Shown: positions 3,793-62,650, numbered from the stretch's first letter. The stretch is 64,000 nt of DNA from Patescibacteria group bacterium (GCA_028710985.1 JAQTTB010000001.1:457864-521863), one strand, 5' to 3'. Program-made: numbers and translations. Notes: a model not told the origin generated them from the sequence alone.

Positions 3793-3996
3793 ATGGATAA
3801 GAGAAGACTCAAGAGATTGACCTCTCTCGATGGAGTAAGTGTCGAATATCGCGAGAGCGAGCTCAATCATAGCTTGAGCAAGGAAGAACTCCTGAAAGAG
3901 CTGAACGAGCTGGTCGATGACTATAATTCAGGTCTTGAGAATCCTCAGGTTGCGGAGGCAACCGAGATTCCGAGAGGATGGGAGATTTTCTTCTAA
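3793..3996 (+). CDS. Small hypothetical protein (67 aa)
   Basis: ATG 9 nt after GGAGG; preceded by a TGgTATACT extended -10. Confidence 0.35.
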   Translation: MDKRRLKRLTSLDGVSVEYRESELNHSLSKEELLKELNELVDDYNSGLENPQVAEATEIPRGWEIFF

Positions 3997-5990: not shown

Positions 5991-6542
5991 ATGTCAATCA
6001 TCCCATCAACCAGCGAACTTATTAACGCCGCCACTCTTCTTGCCCAGGGTGCGATTCGCCAGGGCATGAAGGTTGCGGATTTAGGTTGCGGCAGCACCGG
6101 CCATTTCGTGTTTGCCGCGTCCGAACTTGTGGGAAAAGACGGAATCGTCTACGCGGTTGATATTCAAAAAGGAGCGCTTGATGGCGTTGAAAGCCGCACG
6201 CGGCTTGAGGGTGCCGAGAATGTCAAAACCGTGTGGTCGGATATTGAAATGTTCGGCGCGACTCGTATCCCGGCGGCGAGTCTTGACCTCGTTCTTCTTG
6301 TCAATAATCTTTTTTTGGCAAAAAACAAAAGCGAACTGGCGCGCGAAATCATCCGCCTGATGGTTCCTGGCGGCCGGCTCATTGTCGCAGACTGGAAGAT
6401 GACGCAGGCGCCGTTTGGCCCGTCCGTGAATGATCGCATTTCGCCCGAAGAAGCAAAGAACGTATTTTCTAAGGCCGGGATGAGGCTGGAAAAAGAATTT
6501 GAAGCCGGCAAATATCATTACGGCTTAGTATTTGTAAAATGA
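5991..6542 (+). CDS. Class I SAM-dependent methyltransferase
   Basis: Motif I VADLGCGSTGHF, motif II IVYAVD, post-I LDLVLLV; start ATG 5991 (upstream part of ORF-track 5778 lacks homology). Confidence 0.7.
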   Translation: MSIIPSTSELINAATLLAQGAIRQGMKVADLGCGSTGHFVFAASELVGKDGIVYAVDIQKGALDGVESRTRLEGAENVKTVWSDIEMFGATRIPAASLDLVLLVNNLFLAKNKSELAREIIRLMVPGGRLIVADWKMTQAPFGPSVNDRISPEEAKNVFSKAGMRLEKEFEAGKYHYGLVFVK

Positions 6543-6608
6543 ATCATGAATCAGGAATCATGAATTAAGAATATCGCGCATCGCACGTCCCTGATTCCCG
6601 ATTCTACG
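6541..6608. repeat. REP-like intergenic repeat GAATCATGAATCAGGAATCATGAAT ... CTGATTCCCGATTC
   Basis: Starts inside the stop codon of the methyltransferase; same family as 1471-1525 and 34182-34253. Confidence 0.5.
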
Positions 6609-6647: not shown

Positions 6648-7064
6648 ATGTTTGATATCAGCCCTTTATTAAAAATTTCGTATTGGTTTGACCGCCGGCC
6701 GCCGGCGCTTGAGCCGGCCGCCCAGCAGGTATTTTTTTATGTCTTTGCCGGGCTGGTCGCGCTCTCGGTTGTCATTTCCATAATTATAAAAAAGAAAAAA
6801 GAAGAAGATCCGTGGGTTGCCAAAGGGTTTCAAAAAGTTTCATCGTGGTGCCTCACTATGGGCGTGGCCGGCCTGATGATTTTCTTTTTTAGTTTTGAAC
6901 AGGTGCCGATTCTTTCCATGAGAATTTGGTTTGCGGGCTGGGCGGTTTGGGCGGTCATTTGGATGATCTTTATAATCATGTTTTTCGTTAAAACCATTCC
7001 GGCGGAAAAATCCAGGATAAAAGAAAAAGAGCGGCTGGAAAAATATCTGCCCGGGAAAAAGTGA
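6648..7064 (+). CDS. Hypothetical integral membrane protein
   Basis: 138-aa ORF with 3-4 hydrophobic helices. Confidence 0.45.
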   Translation: MFDISPLLKISYWFDRRPPALEPAAQQVFFYVFAGLVALSVVISIIIKKKKEEDPWVAKGFQKVSSWCLTMGVAGLMIFFFSFEQVPILSMRIWFAGWAVWAVIWMIFIIMFFVKTIPAEKSRIKEKERLEKYLPGKK

Positions 7065-7126
7065 GAATGTTGAATAACTATTCAACATTCTCATCCCGAC
7101 CCCGAGCGAAGTCGAGGGGAGGGATC
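7063..7126. repeat. Composite structured element A: AT-rich 14-bp perfect hairpin + ATCCCGA + GC hairpin (CCCC-GAGCGAAGTCGA-GGGG) + AGGGATC
   Basis: GAGAATGTTGAATA/TATTCAACATTCTC hairpin then ATCCCGA...AGGGATC; same architecture at 60275-60338. Confidence 0.5.
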
Positions 7127-7145
7127 CCTTATCTTCCGCAAGAGA

Positions 7146-7544
7146 GTGTTGGTTGATTATAAAAACCACATCAAAAATATGATCAAGCGGCTCGGCGAAT
7201 GGGGGGAGGACATTGCGGCCGCTTTTTTAGTTAAAAAAGGATATACCCTGGTTGAGCAAAACTGGCGCTGTGAACTCGGGGAGATTGACTTGGTCATGAA
7301 ATTCAATGATAAGGGAAATGAGGTTTATGCTTTCATCGAAGTCAAGGCTCGCGCCGATACGGAATTTGGATATCCGGAAGAGGCAGTCACCCGGTCAAAG
7401 CTTAATCATCTCGTCGCCGCCTGCGAGGCATATTCATACGAGCATAATTTAAAATCAATCTGGCAAATCGATATCGTGGCGATTATCGGAACGCCATCGT
7501 ACGGGATTAAAGATATCAGGCATTTTTCTAAGTTGGAGCTATAA
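7146..7544 (+). CDS. YraN-family (UPF0102) endonuclease
   Basis: GEDIAAAFLVKKGYTLVEQNWRCELGEIDLVM...EVKAR matches the YraN/UPF0102 core; the true start may be ATG 7179. Confidence 0.7.
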   Translation: MLVDYKNHIKNMIKRLGEWGEDIAAAFLVKKGYTLVEQNWRCELGEIDLVMKFNDKGNEVYAFIEVKARADTEFGYPEEAVTRSKLNHLVAACEAYSYEHNLKSIWQIDIVAIIGTPSYGIKDIRHFSKLEL

Positions 7545-7598
7545 TTTTGAATTTCTATGGGCCTTGCGTCTATTTTTGCCGCATGCTATACTCAACGC

Positions 7599-7630
7599 AG
7601 ACTAGTCTCAATAGACTAGTTAATTTTTTA
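7599..7630 (+). terminator. Tandem AGACTAGTCT palindromes forming a hairpin followed by TAATTTTTTA; terminator candidate after yraN
   Basis: AGACTAGTCT-caat-AGACTAGT + T-run. Confidence 0.4.
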
Positions 7631-7640
7631 CCAAGAATAT

Positions 7641-7687
7641 GAAATCGTTGATTTTTCAACGATTTCACCCTGAGCGAAGTGAAGGGT
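7641..7687 (+). promoter_or_regulatory. Two adjacent hairpins in the nusA upstream region (11-bp GAAATCGTTGA/TCAACGATTTC, then ACCCT-GAGCGAAGTGA-AGGGT)
   Basis: Read directly; second loop identical to the loop of element A. Confidence 0.3.
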
Positions 7688-7715
7688 CTTATGCCTAAAC
7701 AGAAAGTAAATTGCT

Positions 7716-16140: not shown

Positions 16141-16743
16141 ATGGATAGCCAAACTCGAAAGCTCTCCAGAGGCGAGAAGTGGAGCTTATTTGTATTAAGC
16201 GCCGCGACTTTGTGTATCGTAATTTTGGCTTCATGGCAGATGAAAAATACGATTTTTTCACCGTTTGTCCAGACGCCAAGTGAGGATACGCGCGCTCTGT
16301 TTGATAATTCACTGCAGCTTGAGGAATTGCGCGGCAAGGACAGCGATAGCGATGGCTTAAGCGACTTTGACGAGCTCTATGTCCACAATACGAGTCCGTA
16401 TCTTCCGGATACTGATTCCGACGGTATGAGCGATTCCGCGGAAATCACTGCCGGTAAAGACCCAAACTGTCCCGAGGGCCAGGAATGCTATATTGACCAG
16501 ACCGGCGGCACCTCGACCGCGGCCGGAGAAACCGAAGAAGTGAATTTGACGGAAAGCGAAAAGGCCGATCTTATGCTCCAGCTTCCGGCCGATGAGATCC
16601 GCGAGCTTCTGAAAAATGCCGGCGTGCCCGAGGAAACGCTCAACCAGCTTACTGACGACGAACTCAAACAGATGGTTGCCGATGTTCTTGCCGAAGAGGG
16701 CGGCTCATTGCCGGCGACCGGCTCAACTTCAACCCAAGAGTAA
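16141..16743 (+). CDS. Membrane-anchored protein with thrombospondin-type-3-like Ca-binding repeats (DSDSDGLSDFDE, DTDSDGMSD)
   Basis: N-terminal TM helix and acidic D-x-D-x-D-G repeats. Confidence 0.5.
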   Translation: MDSQTRKLSRGEKWSLFVLSAATLCIVILASWQMKNTIFSPFVQTPSEDTRALFDNSLQLEELRGKDSDSDGLSDFDELYVHNTSPYLPDTDSDGMSDSAEITAGKDPNCPEGQECYIDQTGGTSTAAGETEEVNLTESEKADLMLQLPADEIRELLKNAGVPEETLNQLTDDELKQMVADVLAEEGGSLPATGSTSTQE

Positions 16744-16747
16744 ATTT

Positions 16748-19700
16748 ATGATGCGTTTAAAACAACAAACAATGCGGACAATCGTTGCGCTTGTTTGTTT
16801 TGTTTTTGTTTGCAATCTCCTGCTCGTGCCGATTCATTACGCGCGCGCTCAACTGGTAGTAACGGATCCGGTTACCGGCCAGGCAGTCACCATAAAAAAT
16901 GTAAAAGATTTTATAAAGACCCTGCTTGTCGGCGTGGCCGGCGTTGCCGTAATTAACGCAGCAAATTATTTCGCACAAAAGCTCGCCTACGACGCCGCCG
17001 TAGCTTTGGTTTCCGGCGGTAAGGGCCAGATGCCGCTTTTTTCCACCAAGGGCTGGGGCGATTATTTTAAAGACGCATCGCTCGGCGCGGTCGGCGAATT
17101 TGTGGGCACTTTGTCCGAAGGATTTGAGGGCCTAGATCTCTGTAATCCCGGTCCGCCCGGCCTTGTGGCAAAACTTCAGACCAGTTTGGTCAAACCATAT
17201 ATTCCGGTGGGCGAAGGCCCGGAGCCAAAATGCGAGTGGAGCAATATTTCCGAAAACTGGACCGAGTTTACCGAAGACTTTACCACCGGCGAGGTTCTTC
17301 AGCGCTCGGGCGTGATGTTTGAACCCGGCCAGTCGCCGCTTTCCATTACCCTTGAAGCCAGCCGCAATCTTTCGGTTCAGGTTTATGAAATGGAAAAATT
17401 AAAAACCCTGGAACGCGAGGAGGGGGAAGGATTTTTGGCCAAGACCGGCATTATTTCCGGCGAGGTCCAGACTCCAGCCCAGGTCATCGCCCAAAAAGCC
17501 AAAGACCTTTCAAAGAGCGGCGAAGAATCCCAGCAAACTAATGTCCAGATGATGGGTTCGGCGCTCGGCGCCGGCGCGACGCAGATTCTCACTTCCGCGC
17601 TTGGCACATTCGTGAATACCCTGGCCGGAAAATTATTGGAAAAAATATTTAACAAGGGTTTAATTAGTTTTCAGAAAAAGGGAAAAAATACCGGCGCACT
17701 CATTAATCCTGAATTTTCGCTCGTCGGCACGCGCGAGGTGGCGCAGGAGATGCAGTCCGATCTGATTACCCCGCCGATTAAAGAGGCCGAGGTTTTTGAT
17801 CAGGTGACTGATTTTTCGGTCTGCCCCTCCCAGTTCGCCAGCCCGAATAACTGCGTAATTGACCAGGGATTTTCCGAAGCCCTGCGGCGGGAACAATCCG
17901 GTACCCCGCTCTCGGTCAAAGAGGCGATTAATCAGGGCCTGCTCCGCGGCGACTGGCCGCTTATTTCCTCGTATGACCGCGCCCGCAACACGGATATTTT
18001 TTGCTACACCTACGGATATTGCTATTCAAATTTAGTCAAACTTCGCAAGGCGCGCATCGTCCCGATCGGTTGGGAAATTGCCGCGCAAAAAAGCGGCGCC
18101 TCGGCTTCGCAGATAACCTTGAGCCAGGCCATGGATGCTTTCTATGACTGCGGAACCGATGCCGATGGCCGGCCGGTTGTGGATTCCGAACATCCGTGGT
18201 GCCACCTCGTCGATCCAAACTGGATTATCAAATATCCGCTTACCCAGTGCCGCGCTTCGGTCTACGGTTCAACCCTGCTCACCGCCGAAAACAGCCTGCG
18301 TTCCGAAACCTGCGTTGATTCGCCGACTTGCATTGCGGTTGATGACGGCGGATCCTGTGTCGGGGGTTGGGGATACTGCACCCGCGAAAAAAATACCTGG
18401 CATTTTGACGGCGACCAGTGTCCGGCGCGTTACGAGTCCTGCATCGCGCTTGAAGACCGGAGCGGCAATCAGGTTTCGTATTTATTAAATACCGTAAATT
18501 ACGGCGCCTGCACTTCGGAAAATGTTGGCTGTCGCTGGTACGCGCGCGAAAAGGCCGGCGACAACTGGACCGCGACCGCAAGTTATAATTCCACGGATAA
18601 AACCATGGTCGCGACCGCGGGCGCCATTTATTTAAACAAAAACGCGGCCGAATGTTCGGCTTCGGACGCCGGCTGCACGGAAATGATCCGTGCCACGGCG
18701 ACCGGAGCGACTTTGAATATTCTGCCCAATCCGAGTTTTGAAACCGCGTCCGCCGAAAATCCGGCCATGCCCGAGAACTGGGTTGCCGCCCGCGATAATT
18801 CCAAATACACCAGCGCGGCAACTACCCTGGACGCCACGGGGGACAAATCTTACGACGGGGTCGCGGCGGTTTCGCCCGGCACCGGCTTAGCCGCCGAAGT
18901 CAAACTCAATGCTTCAAGATTTTACACATTCTCTTTTTACGCGCGGACTTCCAGCCGCGCCACGCTTCTCGCCGGTGTTTCAGTCCTGAAGAGCGATCGT
19001 GTCAAAGCCGATCTCACGCCATATTATTTTTCTGGAACCAATTGCACGCGCGGCACCCAATTTGGCGAAGGCGGGGTAAATGAATCAGTTTATTTTAATC
19101 AGATTGCACCGCCCACCGAATACGCGCGCTATTCCTGCACCTTTACCACTCCGGTTGCCGCGGCTTCGCCCAAGGGATATTTTATCGGCCAGATATTTCT
19201 CTATAGCCAGGACGGCACCTGGATTGACGCCGTCCAGCTTGAAGAATCCGAAACCGTAACCGCGTTTCATGAAGGGATTTCCAGCGGAGCCGGGAGTGTT
19301 TATCTTAAAAAACCGCCCGAATATCTGGGATGCACCGGCGCCTCAACCGATCCGGCCGAATGTTCCAATTATCTGCGCCAATGCCTGGCATCGGATGTCG
19401 GCTGTTCAATGTATTATCCAACAAACGGCGATCCGGCGCTTGCCGCGGTCGCGACCGGCGAGAATATTTGTCCGGCCGAATGCGTCGGCTACGACACCTT
19501 CCGCGAAGAGCCGAGTCAGTGGACCGCCGCGGCCAAATTCCCGCTTTACTTAATTCCGGATACCGCCGAGATGTGTGAAGCGAGTGTCGTGGGCTGCGAT
19601 GAATTTACCAACTTAGATGCCGCTGAAGCTGGTGGGGAATCCAAAAATTATTTCACTTCAATCCGCTCCTGCCAGAAGCCGGCCGCGGACAGCGAAACGT

Positions 19701-22700
19701 TTTATACCTGGGAGGGCTCGGACACCGCCGGCTATCAGCTCAAGACGTGGGTGCTCAAGGCGAGCGACAAGGACGCCGGCCCGTGTACCACGCTCGCGCC
19801 GGGCGGGACCTGTAATGATCCAGCCGTCGGCACCGCGGACTATGACGAGCGCGACTGCTCGGAAGATTTTAAAACCGACGCCAACTGCCGCGAATTTTAC
19901 AATACCGCCGGCGGAATTTTTTATCGCAATTATTCAGATACCATTATTTCCACCGATGAATGCTATCGCTACCGCAAAACCGAAGCAACCGGGGAGGCGG
20001 ATTGCGAATCAACCGGCGGCCAGTGGAGCGCGGCCGGAGAATGCATTTATCTGGGCTATCCGTCCGAGAGCCAGCGCTGCGGCGCCGAATCCGCGGGCTG
20101 CCGCGCCTACACCGGCCCGACGAGCCGCAATGTTGAGGAAGAATTTTTTGACGAATTTGAAAATAACACAACCCAGGATTGGCAGGGCGGGGCCGTGAGC
20201 ACCGAATCCGTCACGCTCGGCGGGCATTCGCTCAAAGCCGCGTCCGGGGCCGCGGTTTCCAAAACCTGGGAATTAACCGCGGGCGAAACTTATATTTTGA
20301 GTTTCTGGGCCAAGGGACAAGGCACGGTGGCCGCGCAAATTGACGGCGAGCCGCTCGGCAGCGTCGCCCTCGGTTCGGAATGGGCAAATTATCAGGTCGG
20401 GCCCCTGCTCATGAGTGAGGCGGGGATAGGTTCAGTGGTTAGCTTCAGCGGATTTGCGGTTGATTCGTATCTGGACAACATCCGGCTCACTCGCGTATCG
20501 GATCATCTTTATTTAATTCGCAACTCCTGGTATACGCCGATGGTGTGCGACATGAATAATCAGGGCGTCTACCTGCCGCGCGCCCAACTCGGTTGCCGCG
20601 CCTACACGGACAGCGAAAATCAGGAAAAATATTTTAAATCATTCGATCGCCTTTGCAGCGAAGGGGCGGTGGGCTGCGAAGCTTTTATTGATACTTACAA
20701 TTCCGCGTCAACCGCGAAACAGATATTCAATCAGGGAGAGGACGGCGCCGAAGTCACGGTGCCCGGCGACACGCTTTCATATTATGTATATGACGAGAAC
20801 ATGGCCTGCGGCGCCGACGCCAAAGGTTGCGAAGCGATGGGTCGCCCGATTTTGGATCAGGATGGTCATACCGTGCTCTCGTACGATGATGTATATCTCG
20901 TGAACGATCCGGAAAATTATTCCAACTCGCTCTGCCTCACCGAAGAAGCCTACTGCGACGAATTCAAGGGCGATACCGGAACTTATTATTTCAAACATCC
21001 GGAAGACAAAACCTGCGAATTTAAGGAAAAGGTGAAAATTGCCGGGCTGGAATATTCGGGTTGGTTCCGCACCGGCACCGAAGACCCGTGCTATGGGTCG
21101 TATCTCGGCGCCGGCAACTCGTACGGTATCTGGAAAAACGGCGACTCGGGCTATGACGCCTGGTACGGCAACTGCCCGGCCGACATGAGCACCTGCACCA
21201 AATTTACCGATCCAGCCGACACTTCGGCCGATGAGCCGCAGGGCAAATCATATTATTATTTGGATAACGACACGCTTGATACTAAGAGCTGCGCTGGTTC
21301 GGCCTCCAAAAGCGCGGGCTGCGCCTTATTTAACAGTACTTCAAAGTCAACCAAGACAGAAAATTCCTGGGCGACTTATCTCACGAGCGAGGACAATAAT
21401 TTCGCCGCTGTTGCCACAATCGATTGCCTCAAAAGCGATAGTCCGTATTGTACCAAGGTTTGCTTTGATAAAGAATTCGGCCCGGAAGCGTTTGTTCCGT
21501 ACCGGTTCGGCCATAACTGTCGCGATGCCGGCGACTGTTCGGGCTACAGGGGTTGCGGTGAGATTTCAAGTTTTGGCAGCAAATGGCGGCACTGGATTCC
21601 GGAACAGAATATTTATCAATACACCGGTTCGTGCGAGGCCGGTTCGGTTTGCGCGGCCGGCAATCCGGGCTGTACCGTCGGCGATCTTTGCGTGGATATG
21701 GCCAAAGAGCTCCTGCGCAATGATTCAAATGAATTATTGAAAGTCCGCCGCGACCGCGAATGCGGCGAGTGGCTGGCGTGCCGCAGTTCGGTTTCGGTCT
21801 GGGACAATGAAACGCAAAAATACAAAAAAATCTGCACCAGCCTCGGGCTTTGCGACGAGTTTGCCCCGGTCGGGGATTCCAGCGAGTGCGTTCATTTTAT
21901 TGAGAGCGAACACGCCGAAGACGTGCTTTCCGAAGCGCTTTACACCGCGCGCGATGTTTCCTGGGAAGGCCAGGATTATTCGGGCTACGCCATTCCGAAT
22001 TATTATTCCATTGACGAGCTTTCGCCCATTGATTTGAGCAGTATTGTCGCCGGTTCAAGCCTGCCGGATTTGCGCGTTGCTTATGTTGAAACCGGCTGCG
22101 GCGCCGGCGTGGCTACTGGCCAGACATGCGGAGACGCGAACGCGCTCGGCAACAAGGGTGTCTGCGTTGCCCAAAAATGCGTTTATGCCATCAACGGCGA
22201 AGCCCTGCCCACGGCCGGAACATCGGCGGAATTATATACGTCGCTTACCGCCGGGGAAAACAAATACCGCGTGGTCGGCCAGTCCTGCCGCGCTTATCCG
22301 GAAGAAGGCGCGCCGTTCCCCTCAAGCGTGGCCGAGTGGGAGAACGGAAAAATGACCACCATTGACCCCAACTTCAAACGCGCCAATATCTGCGAGCAGT
22401 CGATCTGGGAAGATCTGAACAGCGACGGCGTGCGCGATGAAAACGAAATCACGTATCAGGACTGCGAATGCGATTATCAAAAAGTTGAATTTGGAAACGG
22501 CGCGGTCACGAAATTTTATTCCACCAATGAAGTTAATATTCCCAAAGGCATCTGCCTCAATGGCCCGCGTTCCGGGCTTTCGTGCGTGCCGGGCGCGGAA
22601 TACGACGACACCCTGCCGGCCGATTCCGCGGATAATCAAAAAACCTGCGGCGCGATTACTTCGGGCGGCGCCTGCCAGGCGGTTGAGCGCGCCGACAAAT

Positions 22701-25582
22701 TCGTGGGCTGGCTCGGCCAGTGCCTGGAGCGCGATTTGCGCACGCCATTGAACGGCAGCACCGAAGATTTTGCCTGCCTGACCTGGTATCCGTCTTACAT
22801 TCTTTCCGGCGGACAGGATGTTTATAATCTTTTCCCCAATGCCGGATATAATCCGACCAACACCGGCCGCTACTGGTGCGCCGAGGCGCGGGGCATCCGC
22901 AATTCCATTGGACCGACTCGGGCTGGCGAAGATTATGAAGTCATAACGCGCGATAATATTGCCAGTACCACAAAGTGGACAAAAGATCCGCCGGGCGTAT
23001 TATTCCCCGGGGTGCTGTGCACTGGCGCTATTAATTGTCCGGATGCAACGGGCCAGGAAAAGTCCGTGTGCCACGACTTTGGTTCTTACAGCGCCTGTGC
23101 CACGGGTAAATTTTATGGCAGCTATACGGCTTCTGAAGATTCGGCCTGGAATCTTTTGGTCTATACGGCCGACACCAAGGATTATTCAGAAAGATTTTTG
23201 CCGGCAACACAATACGAAAATTATTATCTTGACGAAATCGTTGCCATTGAACTCGCGGTTGACGGCGCGCATAATCCCAAGTTGTGGCCGGATGGCCAAA
23301 ACAGTGATACTGAAGATTTTTACGAAGACGGAAACAATATATTAAGCCGCCAGAATGAAGTTGAATTGAAAAACGGATTCAAAGCCTGGGAAACAAGCTG
23401 GGGCATTCCCGAAGAAACAAAAATTCCGTCAAGCGCTCCGCCGATTCTCACGCAGGCCAATTATGCGTTTTCCGGAGAATATAAATATGAGCATGTAACC
23501 GAAGACGCTTCATGCGAAAATGATTACAGCGATTCAAAGAGCTATTTTGCCATTCGCGCCATCTTTGACGCAAACGGCAAATTCCGCGGATTTTGGACCA
23601 CAACCTGCAATGGCACAAGCAAGCCGCGCGCCTGGGTGAAATTTAAAGTCGTTTTTCACCTTGCGGAAAATTGCGAATCTGTCGCCCAGGTGGTAAAGGC
23701 GAGCGGAGAAAACAAGGCCTATACCGACCGGCTTTATCAGGCAACGAATTTTTTAATGATTGTTGGCAGCGAATATAAATATCCGCAGACTTTCGCGCCC
23801 TTTGGTTCGGCGCAAAGTTACGAGTCGCCGCTTGGCCAAAAATTGCCGTGGATTGTCGGCGATAATCGGAAAGACAAAAATTCTGTCGGTACGCCGGACT
23901 TGAGCCTGATTCCGGAAGATTACACTCTCGCCGGTTCATCCCTTGGTTGTAAGGGCGCATGCGCCAAAGAAGAACTCGATGATTTAAATTTTAATACTTT
24001 AACGCGCGCCCTGGGCAATCTTCAGCAGTTATTTACTGCGGTTTATAAAATATTTGAGTGGGAGCCGGGCTATAAACAGGGCAAATGCGAACCGTCCGGC
24101 GGCTGGTCGGAAGGAACGGGTTTCTATATTCCCTGCAATGGCGAGGGCAACACATGTGATAATGATCCGCCCGGTTCGTGCGTGCAGTCTCTTGAATGCG
24201 ATATCGGTCCGCTCGCCGGCGATCGAAATTGCGCAATAAATGATTATTGCCAGGGCGAGTCCGGATATTGCTATCCAAATCCAGACACCACTGTTTACGG
24301 CGATACCGGCGGCGGACGATATGGGGTGATTGAGGAAGGCGAAGGCATTTGCACCGGCAGCTTGCGCGGCAGCGCGCTGTGCGGCGATATTGAATACCCG
24401 GATGAGGGCACGAATAATTTTCCGTCTCCCGAGGGCACCATCAATTTAACCGTTGACGCCGAACGGGCCGGTGATGAATTCTGTCAGACTTCGGGGGTGT
24501 GTATTGATTGGCATATTAGCGATGGTCAGACAATTTATCAGTGCTATGGCGGGCTAAAACATGGCGAGTCATGCAGCGGACAAAGCGATTGCGGCATTAA
24601 TGCCATGAACGGCTTTTGCGACAGCGGTGTTTGCACGGGCGGCGGCTTTGACAGCATATCGGAAAAAGTTTTCTGTTCCGATAACTCGCAGTGCATAATT
24701 TCAAATGCCATGTGCGCGACAAATGTTTATCGCTGCAGCGACGGACTATTGTCTGGCGCCGAATGTGATCCGGGCTCAAGCATTTGCGGCCAGTCATTTT
24801 CTTGTACAGTAGACGCTGTTCCGGCAGAGCGTGACTTTTACGAAAAGAGCGTTCCGGCCTCTGTCTCCGACACGGCCGAAAGCCAGGGCGTTCCGCCGAC
24901 CGTCGCGGCCATTGATTTTACCAAATGCGATCAATCAACCGGCACCTGCCGCATTGCCAAGCTTAACGGTTTTGATGTGAACAACTGGTATTACGGCACC
25001 ATCACCGGCCAGGAACAGCTCAAGGCAACCATCCGCTTTTATGCCTGGGCCGACCATAATCAGATGCCAATTGTTTCGCGCACCGTGGACTGGGGAGACT
25101 CAAGTCCCAAAGACATGACCTCGGCGAGCAAATACAAAAACTATAAGCCTTATTGCGACAGTGATTCCCTGGAATGTTCGGACGCTCCGGGCATGACCTG
25201 CAAGACATCGAGCGACTGCCCGTCCGGCACCGGCACGTGCCAGCCGGATCTAAGCGGCGTGCCGCACTTTGGCAATGATGACAAAGCCTGCAGCGAGGGA
25301 TTTTTCCAGTTTGAACACACTTATCTTTGCGATGGCGGCGACGAGCTTGGTACTTGTCCGTTCAGCGGTTCGCCGGCTTCGTCAGACAGCATTCCGGCCA
25401 ATGGCTGCAAAACCGCGACTGCCTGTTATTACCGCCCGCGCGTCCAGGTTCAGGATAACTGGGGCTGGTGCAACGGCGACTGCAATGGATTGGGTGAGGG
25501 GTGCTATGAGGATGAATGCTTTATTACAAGGGATGATCCACATTGGACCGAGTTTGATGGCTACATCAAAATAAATAAATAA
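16748..25582 (+). CDS. Giant secreted cysteine-rich protein (2,944 aa), signal peptide, CBM-like NPSFE region
   Basis: Uninterrupted 8.8-kb ORF; start at the ATGATG 5 nt after the upstream stop; N-terminal hydrophobic signal (IVALVCFVFVCNLLLVPIHYARA); very high Cys content. Confidence 0.7.
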   Translation: MMRLKQQTMRTIVALVCFVFVCNLLLVPIHYARAQLVVTDPVTGQAVTIKNVKDFIKTLLVGVAGVAVINAANYFAQKLAYDAAVALVSGGKGQMPLFSTKGWGDYFKDASLGAVGEFVGTLSEGFEGLDLCNPGPPGLVAKLQTSLVKPYIPVGEGPEPKCEWSNISENWTEFTEDFTTGEVLQRSGVMFEPGQSPLSITLEASRNLSVQVYEMEKLKTLEREEGEGFLAKTGIISGEVQTPAQVIAQKAKDLSKSGEESQQTNVQMMGSALGAGATQILTSALGTFVNTLAGKLLEKIFNKGLISFQKKGKNTGALINPEFSLVGTREVAQEMQSDLITPPIKEAEVFDQVTDFSVCPSQFASPNNCVIDQGFSEALRREQSGTPLSVKEAINQGLLRGDWPLISSYDRARNTDIFCYTYGYCYSNLVKLRKARIVPIGWEIAAQKSGASASQITLSQAMDAFYDCGTDADGRPVVDSEHPWCHLVDPNWIIKYPLTQCRASVYGSTLLTAENSLRSETCVDSPTCIAVDDGGSCVGGWGYCTREKNTWHFDGDQCPARYESCIALEDRSGNQVSYLLNTVNYGACTSENVGCRWYAREKAGDNWTATASYNSTDKTMVATAGAIYLNKNAAECSASDAGCTEMIRATATGATLNILPNPSFETASAENPAMPENWVAARDNSKYTSAATTLDATGDKSYDGVAAVSPGTGLAAEVKLNASRFYTFSFYARTSSRATLLAGVSVLKSDRVKADLTPYYFSGTNCTRGTQFGEGGVNESVYFNQIAPPTEYARYSCTFTTPVAAASPKGYFIGQIFLYSQDGTWIDAVQLEESETVTAFHEGISSGAGSVYLKKPPEYLGCTGASTDPAECSNYLRQCLASDVGCSMYYPTNGDPALAAVATGENICPAECVGYDTFREEPSQWTAAAKFPLYLIPDTAEMCEASVVGCDEFTNLDAAEAGGESKNYFTSIRSCQKPAADSETFYTWEGSDTAGYQLKTWVLKASDKDAGPCTTLAPGGTCNDPAVGTADYDERDCSEDFKTDANCREFYNTAGGIFYRNYSDTIISTDECYRYRKTEATGEADCESTGGQWSAAGECIYLGYPSESQRCGAESAGCRAYTGPTSRNVEEEFFDEFENNTTQDWQGGAVSTESVTLGGHSLKAASGAAVSKTWELTAGETYILSFWAKGQGTVAAQIDGEPLGSVALGSEWANYQVGPLLMSEAGIGSVVSFSGFAVDSYLDNIRLTRVSDHLYLIRNSWYTPMVCDMNNQGVYLPRAQLGCRAYTDSENQEKYFKSFDRLCSEGAVGCEAFIDTYNSASTAKQIFNQGEDGAEVTVPGDTLSYYVYDENMACGADAKGCEAMGRPILDQDGHTVLSYDDVYLVNDPENYSNSLCLTEEAYCDEFKGDTGTYYFKHPEDKTCEFKEKVKIAGLEYSGWFRTGTEDPCYGSYLGAGNSYGIWKNGDSGYDAWYGNCPADMSTCTKFTDPADTSADEPQGKSYYYLDNDTLDTKSCAGSASKSAGCALFNSTSKSTKTENSWATYLTSEDNNFAAVATIDCLKSDSPYCTKVCFDKEFGPEAFVPYRFGHNCRDAGDCSGYRGCGEISSFGSKWRHWIPEQNIYQYTGSCEAGSVCAAGNPGCTVGDLCVDMAKELLRNDSNELLKVRRDRECGEWLACRSSVSVWDNETQKYKKICTSLGLCDEFAPVGDSSECVHFIESEHAEDVLSEALYTARDVSWEGQDYSGYAIPNYYSIDELSPIDLSSIVAGSSLPDLRVAYVETGCGAGVATGQTCGDANALGNKGVCVAQKCVYAINGEALPTAGTSAELYTSLTAGENKYRVVGQSCRAYPEEGAPFPSSVAEWENGKMTTIDPNFKRANICEQSIWEDLNSDGVRDENEITYQDCECDYQKVEFGNGAVTKFYSTNEVNIPKGICLNGPRSGLSCVPGAEYDDTLPADSADNQKTCGAITSGGACQAVERADKFVGWLGQCLERDLRTPLNGSTEDFACLTWYPSYILSGGQDVYNLFPNAGYNPTNTGRYWCAEARGIRNSIGPTRAGEDYEVITRDNIASTTKWTKDPPGVLFPGVLCTGAINCPDATGQEKSVCHDFGSYSACATGKFYGSYTASEDSAWNLLVYTADTKDYSERFLPATQYENYYLDEIVAIELAVDGAHNPKLWPDGQNSDTEDFYEDGNNILSRQNEVELKNGFKAWETSWGIPEETKIPSSAPPILTQANYAFSGEYKYEHVTEDASCENDYSDSKSYFAIRAIFDANGKFRGFWTTTCNGTSKPRAWVKFKVVFHLAENCESVAQVVKASGENKAYTDRLYQATNFLMIVGSEYKYPQTFAPFGSAQSYESPLGQKLPWIVGDNRKDKNSVGTPDLSLIPEDYTLAGSSLGCKGACAKEELDDLNFNTLTRALGNLQQLFTAVYKIFEWEPGYKQGKCEPSGGWSEGTGFYIPCNGEGNTCDNDPPGSCVQSLECDIGPLAGDRNCAINDYCQGESGYCYPNPDTTVYGDTGGGRYGVIEEGEGICTGSLRGSALCGDIEYPDEGTNNFPSPEGTINLTVDAERAGDEFCQTSGVCIDWHISDGQTIYQCYGGLKHGESCSGQSDCGINAMNGFCDSGVCTGGGFDSISEKVFCSDNSQCIISNAMCATNVYRCSDGLLSGAECDPGSSICGQSFSCTVDAVPAERDFYEKSVPASVSDTAESQGVPPTVAAIDFTKCDQSTGTCRIAKLNGFDVNNWYYGTITGQEQLKATIRFYAWADHNQMPIVSRTVDWGDSSPKDMTSASKYKNYKPYCDSDSLECSDAPGMTCKTSSDCPSGTGTCQPDLSGVPHFGNDDKACSEGFFQFEHTYLCDGGDELGTCPFSGSPASSDSIPANGCKTATACYYRPRVQVQDNWGWCNGDCNGLGEGCYEDECFITRDDPHWTEFDGYIKINK

Positions 25583-26421: not shown

Positions 26422-27009
26422 TTATTTACACGGATCAAGAATGTTTTTCCAATTTTTGGGATTATTTTTGATGTAATTCGTAATGCGTCGTAAATCCCAT
26501 GCGTCGCGGACGATGTGGTCATAATATGAACGTTGCCATTGAAAATATTCATCCTCGTTTTGATTCGCGATTCGGGTAACCGCGGATTTAAATTCATGGA
26601 TAATTTTTGGCAACAACATTTTATCCCGTTGTACGTCGCGTTGTACGTCGCGTTGTAGGGGTCGCATATATGCGACCCCTACGTCCGTCCATTGCCCGCC
26701 ATGCGAATCGTCCACCCCGTCCGTCCATTGCCCGCCGTACGCATTCCGAATAAATATTAATCCATGAAAATGGTCGGGCATAACAATGTATTGCCCCAAA
26801 TCAATATTCGGAAAATGAATTGGTAAATAATTCCAACATCGGTCCGCGATTTCACCAATCGCTGAACGCCGCATTTCATTTTTTACAATATTTCCAAAAA
26901 AACATTTTTTTCCATCGGTACATATTGTTACATAATATATACTCGGGCGGGAATAATCGCGTTTTTGATATCGGTTTCGTTTTCGCGCGCGTTGATTCAT
27001 GTTAATCAT
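26422..27009 (-). CDS. IS200/IS605-family HUH (Y1) transposase / REP-associated tyrosine transposase (RAYT)-like
   Basis: YYVTICT..., HUH motif MPDHFHGLI, C-terminal WQRSYYDHIVRD; gene contains tandem GTTGTACGTCGC repeats and a 28-bp perfect palindrome GTAGGGGTCGCATATATGCGACCCCTAC. Confidence 0.65.
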   Translation of the reverse strand: MINMNQRARKRNRYQKRDYSRPSIYYVTICTDGKKCFFGNIVKNEMRRSAIGEIADRCWNYLPIHFPNIDLGQYIVMPDHFHGLIFIRNAYGGQWTDGVDDSHGGQWTDVGVAYMRPLQRDVQRDVQRDKMLLPKIIHEFKSAVTRIANQNEDEYFQWQRSYYDHIVRDAWDLRRITNYIKNNPKNWKNILDPCK

Positions 27010-32588: not shown

Positions 32589-32729
32589 AATCATGGAACA
32601 ATCTAAAATCTCAAATCTTAGATCTCAAATCTAAAGATATTAGATATAAGATATATTTTTGAGATTTGAGATTTTATTTATAAGATACTTGTGGTATAAT
32701 ATTTGCGTTTAAGAATTAATATATAAAGT

Positions 32730-33065: not shown

Positions 33066-34197
33066 ATGAAAGAGCTTATCCGCGAACTTGAAGATTTCAC
33101 TGCGCAAATCTCCAAGACATGGGGGTTACTTTGACCTCGACCGCCTGAAATCAGAAATCAAGGCGTTAGAGTCCGAGGCGAGCCAGCCGGATTTTTGGGC
33201 TGATCCGGGGCACGCCAAAGCGGTTTCGCAAAAGCTCAACAGCCTCAAAGAAGAGGTTGAGACTTGGGATAAAATAGAGAAAGAAGCGCGCGAGCTTCTT
33301 TCTCTTTGTAATTTAGCGGAAAGCCAGGGGGATGAAAGTTTGTCCGCTGAAGCGTCGGGAAAATTTGCTGAACTCAAAAAACGCTACGAGCGATTAGAAT
33401 TTTATCTTCTTTTCGGTGGAAAGTACGATCGCGCGAACGCCATTGTGGCCATTCATGCCGGCACTGGCGGCCGCGAGGCTCAGGACTGGGCAGATATGCT
33501 GCTCCGCATGTTTTCGCGTTTCTGTGAGCGTCGCCGCTGGGGAGCGCGCATCCTTGATGAATCGCGCGGCGTTGAGGGTGGTCTCAAGAGCATTACCCTC
33601 GCCGTCGAGGGCGCCTGGGCTTACGGATATTTAAAATCCGAAGCCGGCGTCCATCGTCTGGTGCGCATTTCGCCGTTTGACGCCGAAAAGATGCGCCACA
33701 CTTCGTTCGCTCTGGTTGAAGTTTTGCCCGAGCTTCCGGAAGGTGTGGAGATCGCGATTGATCCGAGCGATTTGCGCATTGATACATTCTGCGCGTCCGG
33801 GCACGGCGGTCAGTCGGTCAATACGACCTACTCTGCCGTGCGCATCACGCATCTGCCGACCAAGATTTCGGTTTCATGTCAGAACGAACGATCCCAGCAG
33901 CAGAATCGCGAAACCGCCATGAAAATTCTCAAAGCAAAGCTCCATCAACTCGAAGAAGAAAAAATGCGCCGCGAGAAAGCCGAAATCCGCGGCGAATACG
34001 CGGCCGCCGAGTGGGGCAATCAGATTCGGAGCTATGTGCTTCAGCCGTACCATCTAGTCAAAGACCACCGCACCAAATATGAGACCGCGGATACCGAAGC
34101 CGTGCTCAACGGAGAATTGGAGCAGTTTATGGAGGCCTATTTGCGACATTTGGCTAGAAAGAGAGATTTACGCGCAAGAGCGAATCAGGAATTATGA
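33066..34197 (+). CDS. prfB: Peptide chain release factor 2 with programmed +1 frameshift (frame-0 ATG 33066, shift at CTT-TGA-C 33129-33135)
   Basis: Frame 0: MKELIRELEDFTAQISKTWGLL*; +1 frame continues DLDRLKSEIKAL...; internal SD-like GGGGG 3 nt upstream of CTTTGAC; SPF/GGQ regions (GHGGQSVNTT) downstream. Confidence 0.9.
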
Positions 34198-34253
34198 ATC
34201 AGGAATCATGAATCTTTTTAATACCCTAATTCCTGATTCCTAATTCTTGATTC
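34182..34253. repeat. REP-like inverted repeat GAATCAGGAATTATGAATCAGGAATCATGAATC ... GATTCCTAATTCTTGATTC
   Basis: Starts within the prfB stop codon; same family as 1471-1525 and 6541-6608. Confidence 0.5.
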
Positions 34254-59028: not shown

Positions 59029-59132
59029 AATTTGCTAAATCTAACCAAATTTGACAAGCTCTGCCCATCTGGTATTCTGTTATAGAATGAGAAAAAAGTT
59101 TACGCCAATCAAAAAATTATTTCTTGGGACAA

Positions 59133-59162
59133 AATTCCTCCCCGGCTGGGAGGAATTTTTTT
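59133..59162 (+). terminator. Rho-independent terminator (AATTCCTCCC-cggct-GGGAGGAATT + T7)
   Basis: Read directly. Confidence 0.5.
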
Positions 59163-59172
59163 ATCAGCCTTT

Positions 59173-59204
59173 CGGCCCCGGTCCCCCCGGGGCCGATTTT
59201 TTTT
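59173..59204 (+). terminator. Second tandem terminator (CGGCCCCGG-tcccc-CCGGGGCCG + T8)
   Basis: Read directly. Confidence 0.5.
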
Positions 59205-60235: not shown

Positions 60236-60274
60236 ATACCGGCTTGCCCGCCTTCCACAAAAATGATACTATAT

Positions 60275-60338
60275 GAGAGCATTAAATATTTTTTAATGCT
60301 CTCATCCCGAGTCCCCCGCAGTGCGGGGGCGAGGGATC
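60275..60338. repeat. Composite structured element B: 12-bp AT hairpin (GAGAGCATTAAA/TTTAATGCTCTC) + ATCCCGA + GC hairpin (CCCCCGC-agt-GCGGGGG) + GAGGGATC
   Basis: Same architecture and conserved spacers as element A (7063-7126); ends 8 nt before the rseP ATG. Confidence 0.5.
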
Positions 60339-60345
60339 TCTCATT

Positions 60346-61515
60346 ATGCTTCTCACGATTATTATTTTCATCGCGGTTCTCTCCCTGCTGGTCTTTGCCC
60401 ATGAGCTCGGCCATTTTTGGGTTTCGCGGCTCTTCGGCGTCAAAGCCGAGGAGTTTGGTTTTGGTTTGCCGCCGCGGATTGTCGGCGTGGTCAAGGATGA
60501 TGCCGGAAAATGGCGCGTCGTCGGCGGAAAAGATGAAGCCGTTTTTAAGCGGACAATCTATTCGCTGAACTGGATCCCGGTCGGCGGATTTGTAAAAATC
60601 AAAGGTGAAAGCGGCGAGGCGCAGGGCGATAACGACAGTTTTTCCACCCGAAAAATCTGGCAGAGGGCCTTAATGCTTTCCGCCGGCGTGATTATGAATG
60701 TGGTTCTGGCGGCCGGCATTCTTTCGCTCGGTTTTATGCTTGGCCTGCCGTCGGTGGTTGATGATGAACCTCCGACCGGCGCGATCGTGCGCGACCGCGA
60801 GATACAGATTCTTTCCGTTCTTAAGGATTCACCCGCCGCCGCGGCTGGACTTGCCTCCGGCGATGTTATTCAAAAAATTGACGGCCGGGATTTTACCACC
60901 ACCGCTGAAGTGCAGGAATATGTCAGCGGCCGCGAGAATCAGGAAACCGAATTTATTTTCAACCGCCAGGGGACTGAGCTTGTAAAAAAAATCACCCCCG
61001 TGAAGCTTGCTGAAACCCCGCATGGCGGGGGCATCGGCATCGGCCTCGCCGACGTGGGCCTGGTTTCGTATCCGTTCCATGTCGCGATTTGGCGCGGCAC
61101 CCAGTCGGCCGTTTTTCTCACCGGCGAAGTTATTATTGCTTTCGGCGAACTCATCAAAAATCTTGTGGTGAAACAGGAAGTTGCCGTGGATCTCTCCGGA
61201 CCGGTCGGCATCGCGGTGCTTACCGGACGCGCGGTGCGCATGGGCATTACCTATCTTTTGCAATTTACCGCTTTTCTTTCAATCAATCTCGCGGTGGTGA
61301 ATTTTCTGCCCTTCCCGGCGCTGGACGGCGGCCGCGTGTTTTTCCTTATCTTAGAAAAAATTCGGCGCCGCCCGGTGAGCGTCAGGCTTGAGAGCCTGAT
61401 ACACAATATCGGTTTTGCCCTGCTTATGGTTCTGGTCGTGCTCATTACTTACCGCGACCTGGTGCGCGCAAGCGGCCAGATTATCGGCGGATTAAAGAAA
61501 CTAATCGGAGTTTAA
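60346..61515 (+). CDS. rseP: RIP metalloprotease RseP (site-2 protease, M50 family, with PDZ domain)
   Basis: HELGHFWVSRLFGV (HExxH); PDZ region; C-terminal ...NLAVVNFLPFPALDGG. Confidence 0.85.
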   Translation: MLLTIIIFIAVLSLLVFAHELGHFWVSRLFGVKAEEFGFGLPPRIVGVVKDDAGKWRVVGGKDEAVFKRTIYSLNWIPVGGFVKIKGESGEAQGDNDSFSTRKIWQRALMLSAGVIMNVVLAAGILSLGFMLGLPSVVDDEPPTGAIVRDREIQILSVLKDSPAAAAGLASGDVIQKIDGRDFTTTAEVQEYVSGRENQETEFIFNRQGTELVKKITPVKLAETPHGGGIGIGLADVGLVSYPFHVAIWRGTQSAVFLTGEVIIAFGELIKNLVVKQEVAVDLSGPVGIAVLTGRAVRMGITYLLQFTAFLSINLAVVNFLPFPALDGGRVFFLILEKIRRRPVSVRLESLIHNIGFALLMVLVVLITYRDLVRASGQIIGGLKKLIGV

Positions 61516-61519
61516 ATTT

Positions 61520-62542
61520 ATGGACGCGCAGCTGGAAGGTTTATCAAAAAAATTTAATCAGGAAATCGCCGCCGCAAGAGACAGCAGGACGGCCGGGGAT
61601 ATTGAAATTAAATATTTGGGACGCCGCGGTGAATTGACGCGGATTTTACGCGGTCTGGACCGGCTGCCCATGGAGCGTCGGCGCGCCCTTGGAAGCGAAG
61701 CCAATGCGCTCAAGGTTCAGCTTGAAAAAATTATTAAAGAAAAAATTAAAACTTTTTCCGCCGCGGAATTCAGGGGACTCGGGCAGAAAGAACGGGTTGA
61801 TATCACCGCGCCGGCGCGCCGCCGGGTCGGCCATCTTCATCCGGTTTCCATAATTCAGCGCGAGCTCGAAGACCTGTTCCGCGGTATGGGTTTCATTGTT
61901 GCCGCCGGTCCGGAGCTTGAATCGGATTATTATAATTTTGAAGCCCTGAATATTCCGCCGCACCATCCGGCCCGCGATATGCAGGATACATTCTATATAG
62001 AAGGCCGGGATGATTTGGTTCTGCGCACCCAGACATCGCCGATTCAGATACGCGCGATGCAAAAATACGGCGTTCCGCTCCGCATGATCGGGCCGGGCCG
62101 TTGTTTTCGGAATGAAGCGACCGACGTGCGCCATGAGCACACGTTTTATCAGCTTGAGGGGGTCGTAATAAGCGAGGATACGAGTTTCGCCGATATGAAG
62201 GGGGTGCTGGAAATTGTCGCGCGGCATCTTTACGGACAAAAAACCGAAGTGCGCTTGCGTCCGAAATTTTTCCCGTTTGTCGAGCCCGGTGTGAACGGCG
62301 AGGTCACCTGTTTCTTGTGCCGCGGCAAGGGCTGCCGCCTGTGCAAGGGGAGCGGCTGGCTTGAGATATTCGGCGCCGGCATGATTCATCCGAACGTTCT
62401 CTCGGTTGGCGGCGCTGATCCCAAAAAATATCAGGGATTTGCCTTTGGTTTCGGGCTGACGCGGCTCGTGATGCTTAAATATAACATTGACGATATCCGC
62501 CATTTCCTAAGTGGCGACCTGAGGTTTATCCAGCAATTTTAG
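61520..62542 (+). CDS. pheS: Phenylalanine--tRNA ligase alpha subunit
   Basis: HPARDMQDTFY...FRNE...GSGWLEIFGAGMIHPNV...GFAFGFGLTRL. Confidence 0.9.
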   Translation: MDAQLEGLSKKFNQEIAAARDSRTAGDIEIKYLGRRGELTRILRGLDRLPMERRRALGSEANALKVQLEKIIKEKIKTFSAAEFRGLGQKERVDITAPARRRVGHLHPVSIIQRELEDLFRGMGFIVAAGPELESDYYNFEALNIPPHHPARDMQDTFYIEGRDDLVLRTQTSPIQIRAMQKYGVPLRMIGPGRCFRNEATDVRHEHTFYQLEGVVISEDTSFADMKGVLEIVARHLYGQKTEVRLRPKFFPFVEPGVNGEVTCFLCRGKGCRLCKGSGWLEIFGAGMIHPNVLSVGGADPKKYQGFAFGFGLTRLVMLKYNIDDIRHFLSGDLRFIQQF

Positions 62543-62547
62543 TCAAA

Positions 62548-62650
62548 AGTTAAAAATCAAAAGTTAAAAGTTGAGTTAAAAGTTTACAAGTTAATTTATA
62601 ATGGACTTATTGATTTTTGACTTGACTTTAGACTTTTAACTTTAGACTAA
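62548..62650. repeat. Long imperfect inverted repeat built from AAAAGTTAAAAG / CTTTTAACTTT units between pheS and pheT
   Basis: Left arm GTCAAAAGTTAAAAATCAAAAGTTAAAAGTTGAG..., right arm ...GACTTTAGACTTTTAACTTTAGAC. Confidence 0.35.

Follow-up and report, generated by a model that had tools for sequence, protein, structure and literature searches.

Three intergenic copies of a probable REP/MITE-like insertion element with two covarying hairpins in a 64-kb stretch of a Patescibacteria genome

Three intergenic regions of the Patescibacteria DNA analysed here (a stretch of 64,000 nucleotides, hereafter the window) carry copies of an element that is structured, small and non-coding and is probably a REP/MITE-like insertion, and not a set of RNA switches dedicated to particular genes. 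This element was inserted at least three times into A/T-rich spacers of the genome. According to the unit that we propose, hairpin 1 would represent the left terminal sequence, TGAGA-nn-GTTGAA(A/T)AA, folded onto an adjacent inverted copy, and hairpin 2 would represent a REP-like stem-loop. The 5' strand of this stem-loop, (A)TCCC, is rich in pyrimidines and its 3' strand, GGGA(T), in purines; between them lie a G-A/A-G internal loop and an inner hairpin of high G+C content whose sequence varies freely, and TCYCTTAT follows as a short tail. In the small genomes of the Patescibacteria (CPR), mobile DNA is generally regarded as scarce. In 64 kb of the present one, three intergenic regions have been reshaped by a family of structured repeats.

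Copies in the window and their orthologous sites

Copies A (7062-7128) and B (60273-60340) each consist of a first hairpin (TGAGA...TCTCA) that directly abuts a second one. A sequence-only reading of the window had already attributed a common two-hairpin architecture to them, and the sequence, the predicted folds and a covariance model all agree with this assignment. A diverged third copy, C (7640-7690), is located near A. The individual features are:

7062-7093, plus strand: hairpin 1 of copy A, TGAGAATGTTGAAT-aact-ATTCAACATTCTCA, 14 bp, loop AACT
7094-7126, plus strand: hairpin 2 of copy A, TCCC-GA-CCCCGAGCGAAGTCGAGGG-GA-GGGA-TC
7127-7178, plus strand: remainder of the lineage-specific insertion at locus A, tail CCTTATCTT...ACATCAAAAAT
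7640-7667, plus strand: hairpin 1 of copy C, TGAAATCGTTGA-tttt-TCAACGATTTCA, 12 bp, loop TTTT
7668-7694, plus strand: minimal hairpin 2 of copy C, CCCT-GA-GCGAAGT-GA-AGGG plus tail TCTTATGC
60244-60272, plus strand: ancestral rseP promoter, TTGCCC (60244-60249), 17-nt spacer, TACTAT (60267-60272)
60273-60305, plus strand: hairpin 1 of copy B, (A)TGAGAGCATTAAA-tattt-TTTAATGCTCTCA(T), 12-14 bp
60305-60338, plus strand: hairpin 2 of copy B, TCCC-GA-GTCCCCCGCAGTGCGGGGGC-GA-GGGA-TC

Closer examination of hairpin 2 revealed that ATCCC and GGGAT constitute its outer stem, that two GA dinucleotides are opposed as a symmetric internal loop (G-A/A-G), and that the interior enclosed by this loop is a variable G+C-rich hairpin. 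In copy A, the outer stem TCCC/GGGA and a GA/(G)A internal loop enclose an inner CCCCGA-GCGAAG-TCG(A)GGG, which is followed by TC. The corresponding arrangement in copy B (60305-60345, plus strand) is TCCC-GA-G(U)CCCCCGC-AGU-GCGGGGGC-GA-GGGA with a tail, TCTCTCATT, that reaches the rseP ATG at 60346. ATCCCGA and GAGGGATC are indeed shared by A and B, as was noted in the sequence-only reading, but they are not spacers, since they pair with each other in the outer stem of hairpin 2. Likewise, the view that the hairpin-1 stems of the two copies differ completely needs to be corrected: their 5' arms share 10 of 14 positions, and each of the other 4 is matched by a compensating change in the 3' arm. 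A separate hairpin that had been reported at 7667-7687 is real, but it is not a lone structure and corresponds to hairpin 2 of the composite copy C. The predicted RNA folds of A and B have energies of -35.4 and -40.7 kcal/mol, respectively (z-scores of -6.5 and -6.9 relative to dinucleotide shuffles), and the exact 9-mer TCATCCCGA is found at only two sites in the window, which are A and B. For a promoter-like TTGAAA within hairpin 1, neither strand offers a -10 box at the proper spacing.

All three copies are sense-oriented, from which it follows that they would be transcribed together with the genes downstream, which are yraN for A, nusA for C and rseP for B and are mutually unrelated. The next start codon is located 7 nt after B, 68 nt after C and 52 nt after A (ATG at 7179; 19 nt if the GTG at 7146 is used), which does not fit the earlier statement that both A and B are positioned 10-50 nt upstream of a gene start. 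The TGA with which copy A opens is the stop codon of the ORF at 6648-7064.

We compared these loci with the orthologous sites in related genomes. At locus B, a covariance-model search detected no element upstream of rseP in four syntenic relatives (RseP about 60% identical). The rseP promoter of the relatives reads CTTGCC(C/T)-17-TAATAT/TAAAAT with the ATG 10-13 nt after the -10 box; in the window, copy B sits between the -10 box and the ATG, which are separated by 70-odd nt. At locus A, the stop codon of the membrane-protein gene (product ending in PGKK) and the yraN ATG are 2-7 nt apart in three relatives (L085, L086 and L088), as compared to 114 nt (7065-7178) in the window. At locus C, the nusA leader, the closest relatives (L085 and L086) have hairpin 2 alone in the corresponding place, without hairpin 1 and with covarying outer stems (ATCCC/GGGAT and TCCT/AGGA), and the whole element is absent from the more distant L087 and L088. 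Hairpin 1 of copy C was thus found at this locus in the present genome only.

Altogether, 5 copies (3 composite and 2 hairpin-2-only) were identified in the 78 kb examined of this 744-kb genome, namely the window plus 5 kb upstream (L049) and 8.5 kb downstream (L057). The two hairpin-2-only copies form a head-to-head pair 5 kb upstream of the window (L049). In about 100 kb from the relatives, the nusA-leader copy was the only one. Two independent short-read assemblies end inside copy B and, in practical terms, elements of this type break short-read assemblies and create spurious small ORFs in annotation.

The three insertions are placed between a stop codon and the next start codon (A), between the rseP -10 box and the start codon (B), and in the nusA leader (C). 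Copy A would separate two genes that are nearly contiguous in relatives. Since copy B is located downstream of the rseP -10 box, a transcript starting about 7 nt past TACTAT (near 60277-60280) would begin inside hairpin 1. The remainder of B would then form nearly the entire 5' UTR of rseP, and hairpin 2 could still form in this RNA. Its paired 3' strand contains GAGGGA, the sole Shine-Dalgarno-like motif before rseP. In the relatives, the rseP leader appears to comprise only a few nt; apparently, therefore, the gene became leadered through copy B after having had a very short leader.

The element family in other genomes

A genome collection (species representatives) and a metagenome collection were scanned for the pattern GAGA...TCTCATCCCGA...GAGGGATC. 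This returned 48 loci with about 25 distinct sequences that share the two-hairpin architecture and originate from Polyangiaceae, Planctomycetia, Omnitrophota and Gammaproteobacteria/Lysobacterales MAGs (the taxon labels being those of the MAG records), from a low-G+C MAG labelled only 'bacterium', and from freshwater, sediment and groundwater metagenomes. The presence of the same module with the same junction bases in MAGs labelled as distant phyla suggests either a wide horizontal spread or a widely shared recognition machinery. A covariance model was built from 20 copies from other organisms, with the window sequences excluded. It assigned 55.7 bits to A (E-value of 4e-11), 55.8 bits to B (E-value of 4e-11) and 34.9 bits to C (E-value of 3e-6), and nothing above 14 bits to the rest of the plus strand of the window. 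An absence of further copies had been named beforehand as the outcome that would speak against the sequence-only reading; instead, the model and the collection scans delivered many. It is for this reason that a chance resemblance of two unrelated hairpin pairs, which was conceivable as long as only two full copies had been seen, can now be assigned a negligible probability: the independent model gives E-values of about 4e-11 for both A and B, the window contains a third copy, and dozens of copies with the same junctions exist in other genomes.

The stem covariation noted in the sequence-only reading is strong in the aligned copies. In an alignment of 27 copies, which was itself fitted to the covariance model, double (compensatory) changes were observed in 18 of the 24 base pairs, and 92.8% of the cells were paired as compared to 74% in column shuffles and 34-50% in slid controls, with none of 500 shuffles reaching the observed values. 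TGAGA, TCTCATCCCGA and GAGGGATC are invariant in part because they formed the search pattern. In copies that were found independently of this pattern, the outer stem of hairpin 2 covaries as well (TCCC/GGGA, TTCC/GGAA, TTTC/GAAA, CCCT/AGGG and TCCT/AGGA), the 5' strand of this stem is always pyrimidine-rich, and the GA that comes next is fixed. The persistence of the hairpins with compensatory changes would be accounted for if what matters, to a mobilising machinery or to selection acting on the transcript, is the fold plus a few fixed bases and not the sequence of the stems.

We found no prior description of this family, which extends the known kinds of CGTC-type REPs and MITEs. When the window and 29 loci were searched against Rfam at the gathering threshold, and both regions additionally at E-values of up to 10, no family matched the element. 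The searches returned only tRNAs, one c-di-GMP-I riboswitch elsewhere, and sub-threshold matches to generic hairpins (microRNA precursors). Literature searches with the strings CATCCCGAG, GAGGGATC, GAGCGAAGCGAGG... and FAQNDK yielded only unrelated primer matches, and those for MITEs or REPs in Patescibacteria or CPR yielded nothing relevant. In viral contigs, the composite pattern had one chance match and the terminal 16-mer had 25 chance matches in coding sequences. As these are matches by chance only, the family does not seem to be phage-borne.

In 10 copies from other genomes, the two hairpins make up the first 60-70 nt of a 114-133-bp unit. The terminal inverted repeats of these long forms agree at 12-16 of 16 positions, and their 3-bp flanking repeats are identical in 8 of the 10 cases with varying triplets (AAT five times, ATT twice and AGT once). 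Because the surroundings are A/T-rich and 2 of the 10 pairs are mismatched, a target duplication is only moderately supported. One Planctomycetia MAG contains three identical 124-bp copies with unrelated flanks and the triplets AAT/AAT, AAT/AAT and AGT/AGT. The long forms fold with their termini paired around hairpin 2 through a 17-bp terminal stem. This is the anatomy of a MITE, and it identifies hairpin 1 as a structure in which an internal inverted copy pairs with the left terminal repeat. In copy A, the 5' arm of hairpin 1 has its homologue in the left terminal inverted repeat of these units. In one copy (L023), the internal copy tracks two changes in the left arm and the right terminus does not, and in three others (L022, L030 and L040) the left-arm GTTGCAAAAGG was kept despite deletion of its partner. 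These patterns indicate that the fold and the sequence of the left arm are both under constraint. As for the right ends of the window copies, A has a degenerate one only and B has only TCTCTCA past hairpin 2. Their flanking triplets (AAG/AAA for A and ATA/TTA for B) include no convincing target duplication, nor was a convincing right terminal repeat found, and the 52-nt tail of copy A shows weak homology to the tails of the long forms (z-scores of 1.1 and 2.7).

Hairpin 2 is also widespread on its own, usually in the form of head-to-head dimers, as in L049 (the same genome), L002 and L013. The head of such hairpin-2-only units reads (C/T)GTC, their stem opens and closes with AT, and 3 nt form the tail. 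The head is CGTC in both L049 copies and TGTC in L002, L016 and L013. The corresponding sequence is TCTC in A and B and TTTC in C, because hairpin 1 occupies the head position. The AT...AT closure is present in A and B (ATCCC/GGGAT), C closes with AC...GT, and the inner hairpin comprises 7-20 nt. The minimal forms in L013, ATCCCGAGC-GCA-GCGAGGGAT, come close to the stem of a CGTC-REP. The tails after hairpin 2 are CCC in A, CTC in B and CTT in C, and most of the low-G+C copies continue with TCYCTTAT. The tails of L025 and L033 also contain a 12-codon ORF (MV(G/K)M...), which we take to be incidental.

Transcription, termination and the placement of the elements

All copies are intergenic, with A, B and C being singletons, and the genes downstream in other genomes include a pth-like gene, an IleRS-like gene and tRNAs. 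Based on a simple ORF calling of our own, the downstream gene runs in the same direction as the element in 11 of 13 short forms; of the other two, one is located inside a tRNA cluster on the same strand and one lies 3 nt past a co-oriented upstream gene, so that none of the 13 is antisense to both neighbours. The same calls place five long forms antisense to both neighbouring genes. The lack of doubly antisense short forms is a hint of selection acting on the transcript, which would not be predicted for purely selfish DNA. The same pattern could, however, reflect the properties of the opposite strand, on which hairpin 1 and the A-rich target would read as a hairpin followed by a U-run.

The latter property also bears on the question whether the elements resemble each other only superficially and serve the upstream genes as Rho-independent terminators or as stabilisers of the 3' end. 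A and B are strong hairpins just past genes, A even begins at a stop codon, and the opposite strand has a T-rich run after hairpin 1 and was listed as terminator-like. On the sense strand, however, no U-tract follows the hairpins of A (CCCUUAUCUU), of B (CUCUCAUUAUG) or of C. Moreover, B is located past the rseP promoter and 7 nt before the ATG, with no room for another promoter after it, and termination at this position would therefore silence rseP. Copy C comes directly after a canonical hairpin with a T-run (7600-7629), and the genome has ordinary terminators elsewhere (59172-59204). We therefore regard this explanation as highly unlikely.

A role in the RNA deserves more weight, but it is still rather unlikely. 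It would imply a functional RNA module that was perhaps spread by transposition, but that was kept for the action of its two 5'-proximal hairpins on the transcript. Possible actions are protection of the mRNA 5' end, masking of GAGGGA to set the level of translation, and protein binding at the G-A/A-G loop. This is in line with the strong covariation in both hairpins, with the predominant co-orientation of the short forms, and with the pairing of the only Shine-Dalgarno-like motif of B. In addition, the element lies between a -10-like box and an ATG 6-8 nt past GGGATC in B, L002 and L016, and a hairpin-2 element has been kept with covarying outer stems in the nusA leader of three related genomes. 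On the other hand, A and B are absent at orthologous sites in relatives that keep the promoter and the genes, five long forms are antisense to both neighbours, and Rfam contains no match. The stems also do not single out one RNA strand, as 15 G-U combinations were counted against 9 A-C combinations. A gene-specific regulatory role is excluded, both by the absence at orthologous sites and by the mutually unrelated nature of the downstream genes. Consequently, of the two possibilities that the sequence-only reading had left side by side, the structured MITE is upheld by the insertions, the unrelated downstream genes and the long forms with terminal repeats, and the RNA element is not supported, apart from a secondary influence that the copies may have on the transcripts.

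Besides the probable insertion element as such, its placement invites a more speculative reading. A TAnnnT box, often TGnTAnnnT, ends at the first T of the element in 13 of 25 copies. The two-hairpin module might be a recognition structure that is shared across phyla, is bound by a single-strand-specific enzyme or an RNA-binding protein, and is inserted preferentially at melted promoter DNA. We consider this quite unlikely. The conserved parts would then be the fixed head, the pyrimidine/purine asymmetry of the strands and the G-A/A-G loop. If the preference for -10 boxes were true, the element would systematically equip genes that have very short leaders with a longer one in which the ribosome-binding site is masked, and would thus be a mobile 5'-UTR cassette and more than a selfish repeat.

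Candidate enzymes and comparison with known systems

The window contains one gene for a possible mobilising enzyme:

26422-27009, minus strand: RAYT-family Y1 (HUH) transposase gene, 195 aa, HUH and catalytic-Tyr motifs intact

Its product scores 24.5 bits with Pfam Y1_Tnp (cut-off 23) and 46 bits with the NCBIfam model 'REP-associated tyrosine transposase', which is under the cut-off of 80. When the protein was aligned with nine homologues (JGI names some of them RayT), both the HUH and the WQRSYYDHI motif proved to be conserved. No element was found in the flanks of this gene by the covariance model, an inverted-repeat scan or local alignments (best z-score of 2.7 in 12 tests), and tblastn detected no homologue in the other 88 loci. 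The RAYT gene is therefore a candidate mobilising enzyme by co-occurrence only, with nothing linking it to the elements. Judged from the terminal inverted repeats and the 3-bp flanking repeats of the long forms, a DDE-type transposase is suggested as another candidate mover. We found no autonomous element, and no transposase gene, with the same termini; in viral contigs, the terminal 16-mer had only chance matches in coding sequences. The long forms, with their terminal repeats and flanking duplications, provide a handle for finding the enzyme.

GTAG REPs and REPINs, on which Nunvar 2010, Bertels & Rainey 2011 and Ton-Hoang 2012 have reportedly worked, are mobilised by RAYTs. The present elements resemble them in having a structure-defined hairpin with a conserved 4-nt head, in forming inverted dimers, and in the presence of a RAYT-family gene in the window. 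Also the maintenance of the fold by compensatory changes is as expected for recognition of single-stranded DNA. However, the head is (C/T)GTC or TCTC and not GTAG, and the long forms have flanking direct repeats, which are not a product of Y1 transposition. Since the RAYT gene lacks flanking repeats, unlike what is seen for GTAG REPs, there is no REPtron here.

The juxtaposition of G-A and A-G next to a C-G helix is reminiscent of kink-turns and other tandem G-A RNA motifs. A kink-turn reading of the GA/GA loop was nevertheless ruled out, as the loop is symmetric and has no 3-nt bulge, and no associated L7Ae-type gene was noted.

Bacterial MITEs, such as the Correia elements of Neisseria, ERIC, RUP and the RPEs of Rickettsia, are similar to the present family in being small and non-coding and in the occurrence of identical copies in one genome; its long forms, in addition, share with them inverted repeats at the termini and short direct repeats at the flanks. 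As is typical of MITEs, multiple copies exist, and syntenic relatives have neither A nor B at the orthologous sites. A further similarity is the insertion beside genes with which the elements are probably co-transcribed, thereby altering the 5' UTR or the inter-cistronic spacing. The family has no known sequence similarity to the consensus sequences of Correia, ERIC, RUP or RPE elements. The family also differs from these MITEs in that the left terminal repeat is duplicated internally as hairpin 1, that a REP-like hairpin is a fixed internal part, and that the window copies are without a clear right end.

The closest parallel for hairpin 2 is provided by the CGTC-tagged REPs, which include Neisseria dRS3 and Rickettsia RPE-4 and RPE-6 (Di Nocera, De Gregorio & Rocco 2013, BMC Genomics 14:522, PMC3733652). 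As described in the text of that paper, these REPs have a CGTC head (with TGTC and CCTC variants), an 8-9-bp stem with A-T in the first and second positions, a 4-5-nt loop and a 3-nt tail, CCA. They are mostly head-to-head dimers, intergenic and present in many copies per genome, and the authors report that they found no dedicated transposase (PMC3733652). They also describe REP dimers within longer palindromes and REP units to which an unrelated stem-loop is attached (PMC3733652). The main hosts are the alpha-Proteobacteria; Patescibacteria are not named in the text of the paper, in which other phyla are given in a figure (PMC3733652).

Relative to this published description, hairpin 2 has the same layout of a 4-nt head, a stem that is opened and closed by AT, and a short unpaired 3' tail. 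The hairpin-2-only copies likewise dimerise head-to-head, are intergenic and differ very unevenly in abundance among related genomes. Unlike the REPs described in that text, however, the present elements have a two-tiered stem with a conserved G-A/A-G loop and a variable inner hairpin, which departs from the stem and loop dimensions given there, and a tail of C(C/T)C instead of CCA. Moreover, A, B and C have an abutting hairpin 1 where the dimer partner would be. Measured against the class as it is set out in that text, the CGTC-tagged REPs thereby gain a composite form with a two-tiered stem and a G-A/A-G internal loop.

Flanks, tails and setting of the two-hairpin elements

Three copies of the two-hairpin family from other loci (L-numbers) are of note for their setting or tails:

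L024 3891-4350, - strand: element copy in a tRNA cluster, on a metagenome contig of 69% G+C
L025 4725-4790: tail of a long low-G+C form, with a 12-codon ORF
L033, reverse strand: tail of a second such form, with a 12-codon ORF

The 5' flanks were compared across about 25 copies of the family (window 60267-60274, L002 2355-2368, L016, L033, L041, L048 and others). Bases resembling a -10 box are often located directly 5' of the TGAGA that opens hairpin 1, frequently in the extended form TGnTAnnnT. In 13 of the 25 copies, a TAnnnT ended at or beside the element's first T, and the L002 copy is preceded by a complete TTGACA-18-TAAAAT. These flanks could reflect preferential insertion at promoter-like DNA, or they could be promoters that read into the element. 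The L024 copy starts directly 3' of a tRNA gene within a cluster of four tRNA genes that all lie on one strand, and it would belong to the tRNA precursor transcript.

The L025 and L033 tails, which stem from separate metagenomes, share about 85% identity, and their ORFs read MVKMRFLNYSTV and MVGMKLSDYPTV. The start of the tail ORF, TCTCATTATG, was found again at the 3' edge of copy B, the window copy preceding rseP, where the ATG of the match is the rseP start codon.

The RAYT-family gene of the window

26422-27009, - strand: gene for a RAYT-family (REP-associated tyrosine transposase) Y1/HUH transposase, 195 aa, intact
26627-26657: 12-nt tandem repeat, ahead of the palindrome
26655-26682: perfect 28-bp palindrome GTAGGGGTCGCATA|TATGCGACCCCTAC, within the ORF

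This gene is absent from a simple longest-ORF gene map because of a spurious 241-aa ORF on the opposite strand. In the protein collection, the sole NCBI entry of the 744-kb contig that matches the ORF is P0242, a 119-aa 'transposase' with 100% identity across 61% of the ORF. The palindrome codes for VGVAYMRPL in the variable linker of the protein.

The nusA leader, terminators and heptamer arrays

7564-7630 (L085 about 3830-3900; L086; L087 1440-1480): nusA upstream region, promoter-like sequence, hairpin and T-run
16616-25582, + strand: giant ORF of 2,988 aa
25592-25629: hairpin and T-run terminator after this ORF
59131-59204: tandem pair of hairpins ahead of an AsnA-like class II synthetase paralogue
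1495-1524, 6539-6572, 32600-32649, 34182-34253 and 62541-62594: short arrays between genes, with repeats of 7-nt periodicity

The promoter-like TTGCGT-17-TATACT ahead of nusA directly precedes a hairpin, GACTAGTCTC-aat-AGACTAGT, with a T-run behind it, and all three are kept in the three related genomes. Hairpin and T-run are candidates for a terminator or attenuator in the leader of the nusA operon, possibly serving NusA autoregulation. Ordinary intrinsic terminators are in use in this genome, as shown by the tandem pair, in which the first hairpin (AAAATTCCTCCC/GGGAGGAATTTT) is followed by a canonical terminator (TCGGCCCCGG/CCGGGGCCGA with a T8 run). Orthologues of the giant ORF, of about 2,900 aa, occupy the same syntenic position in the relatives L085 and L086.

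The arrays are built from the heptamers CCTGATT, ATGAATC/GAATCAT, AATCTCA/AATCTAA and AGTTAAA. Similar heptamer arrays (GTGAGTCAGTGAGTCAGTGGGTCAG) border the REP dimers of L013.

A hairpin-2-only pair upstream of the window

L049 2761-2812, + strand: first hairpin-2-only element, GTCATCCCGACCGGAGCCCCGAGCCGCGTCGAGGGGCGGAGCGGAGGGATCCC
L049 2842-2916, - strand: second hairpin-2-only element, CGTCATTCCGAGCGAAGCG...GAGGAATCTC

These head-to-head elements, whose layout resembles that of CGTC-tagged REPs, belong to the same genome as the window and lie about 2.3-2.4 kb upstream of its start, with a 207-aa gene on one side and a GIY-YIG gene on the other. The first element has almost the same inner hairpin as copy A, the window copy before yraN.
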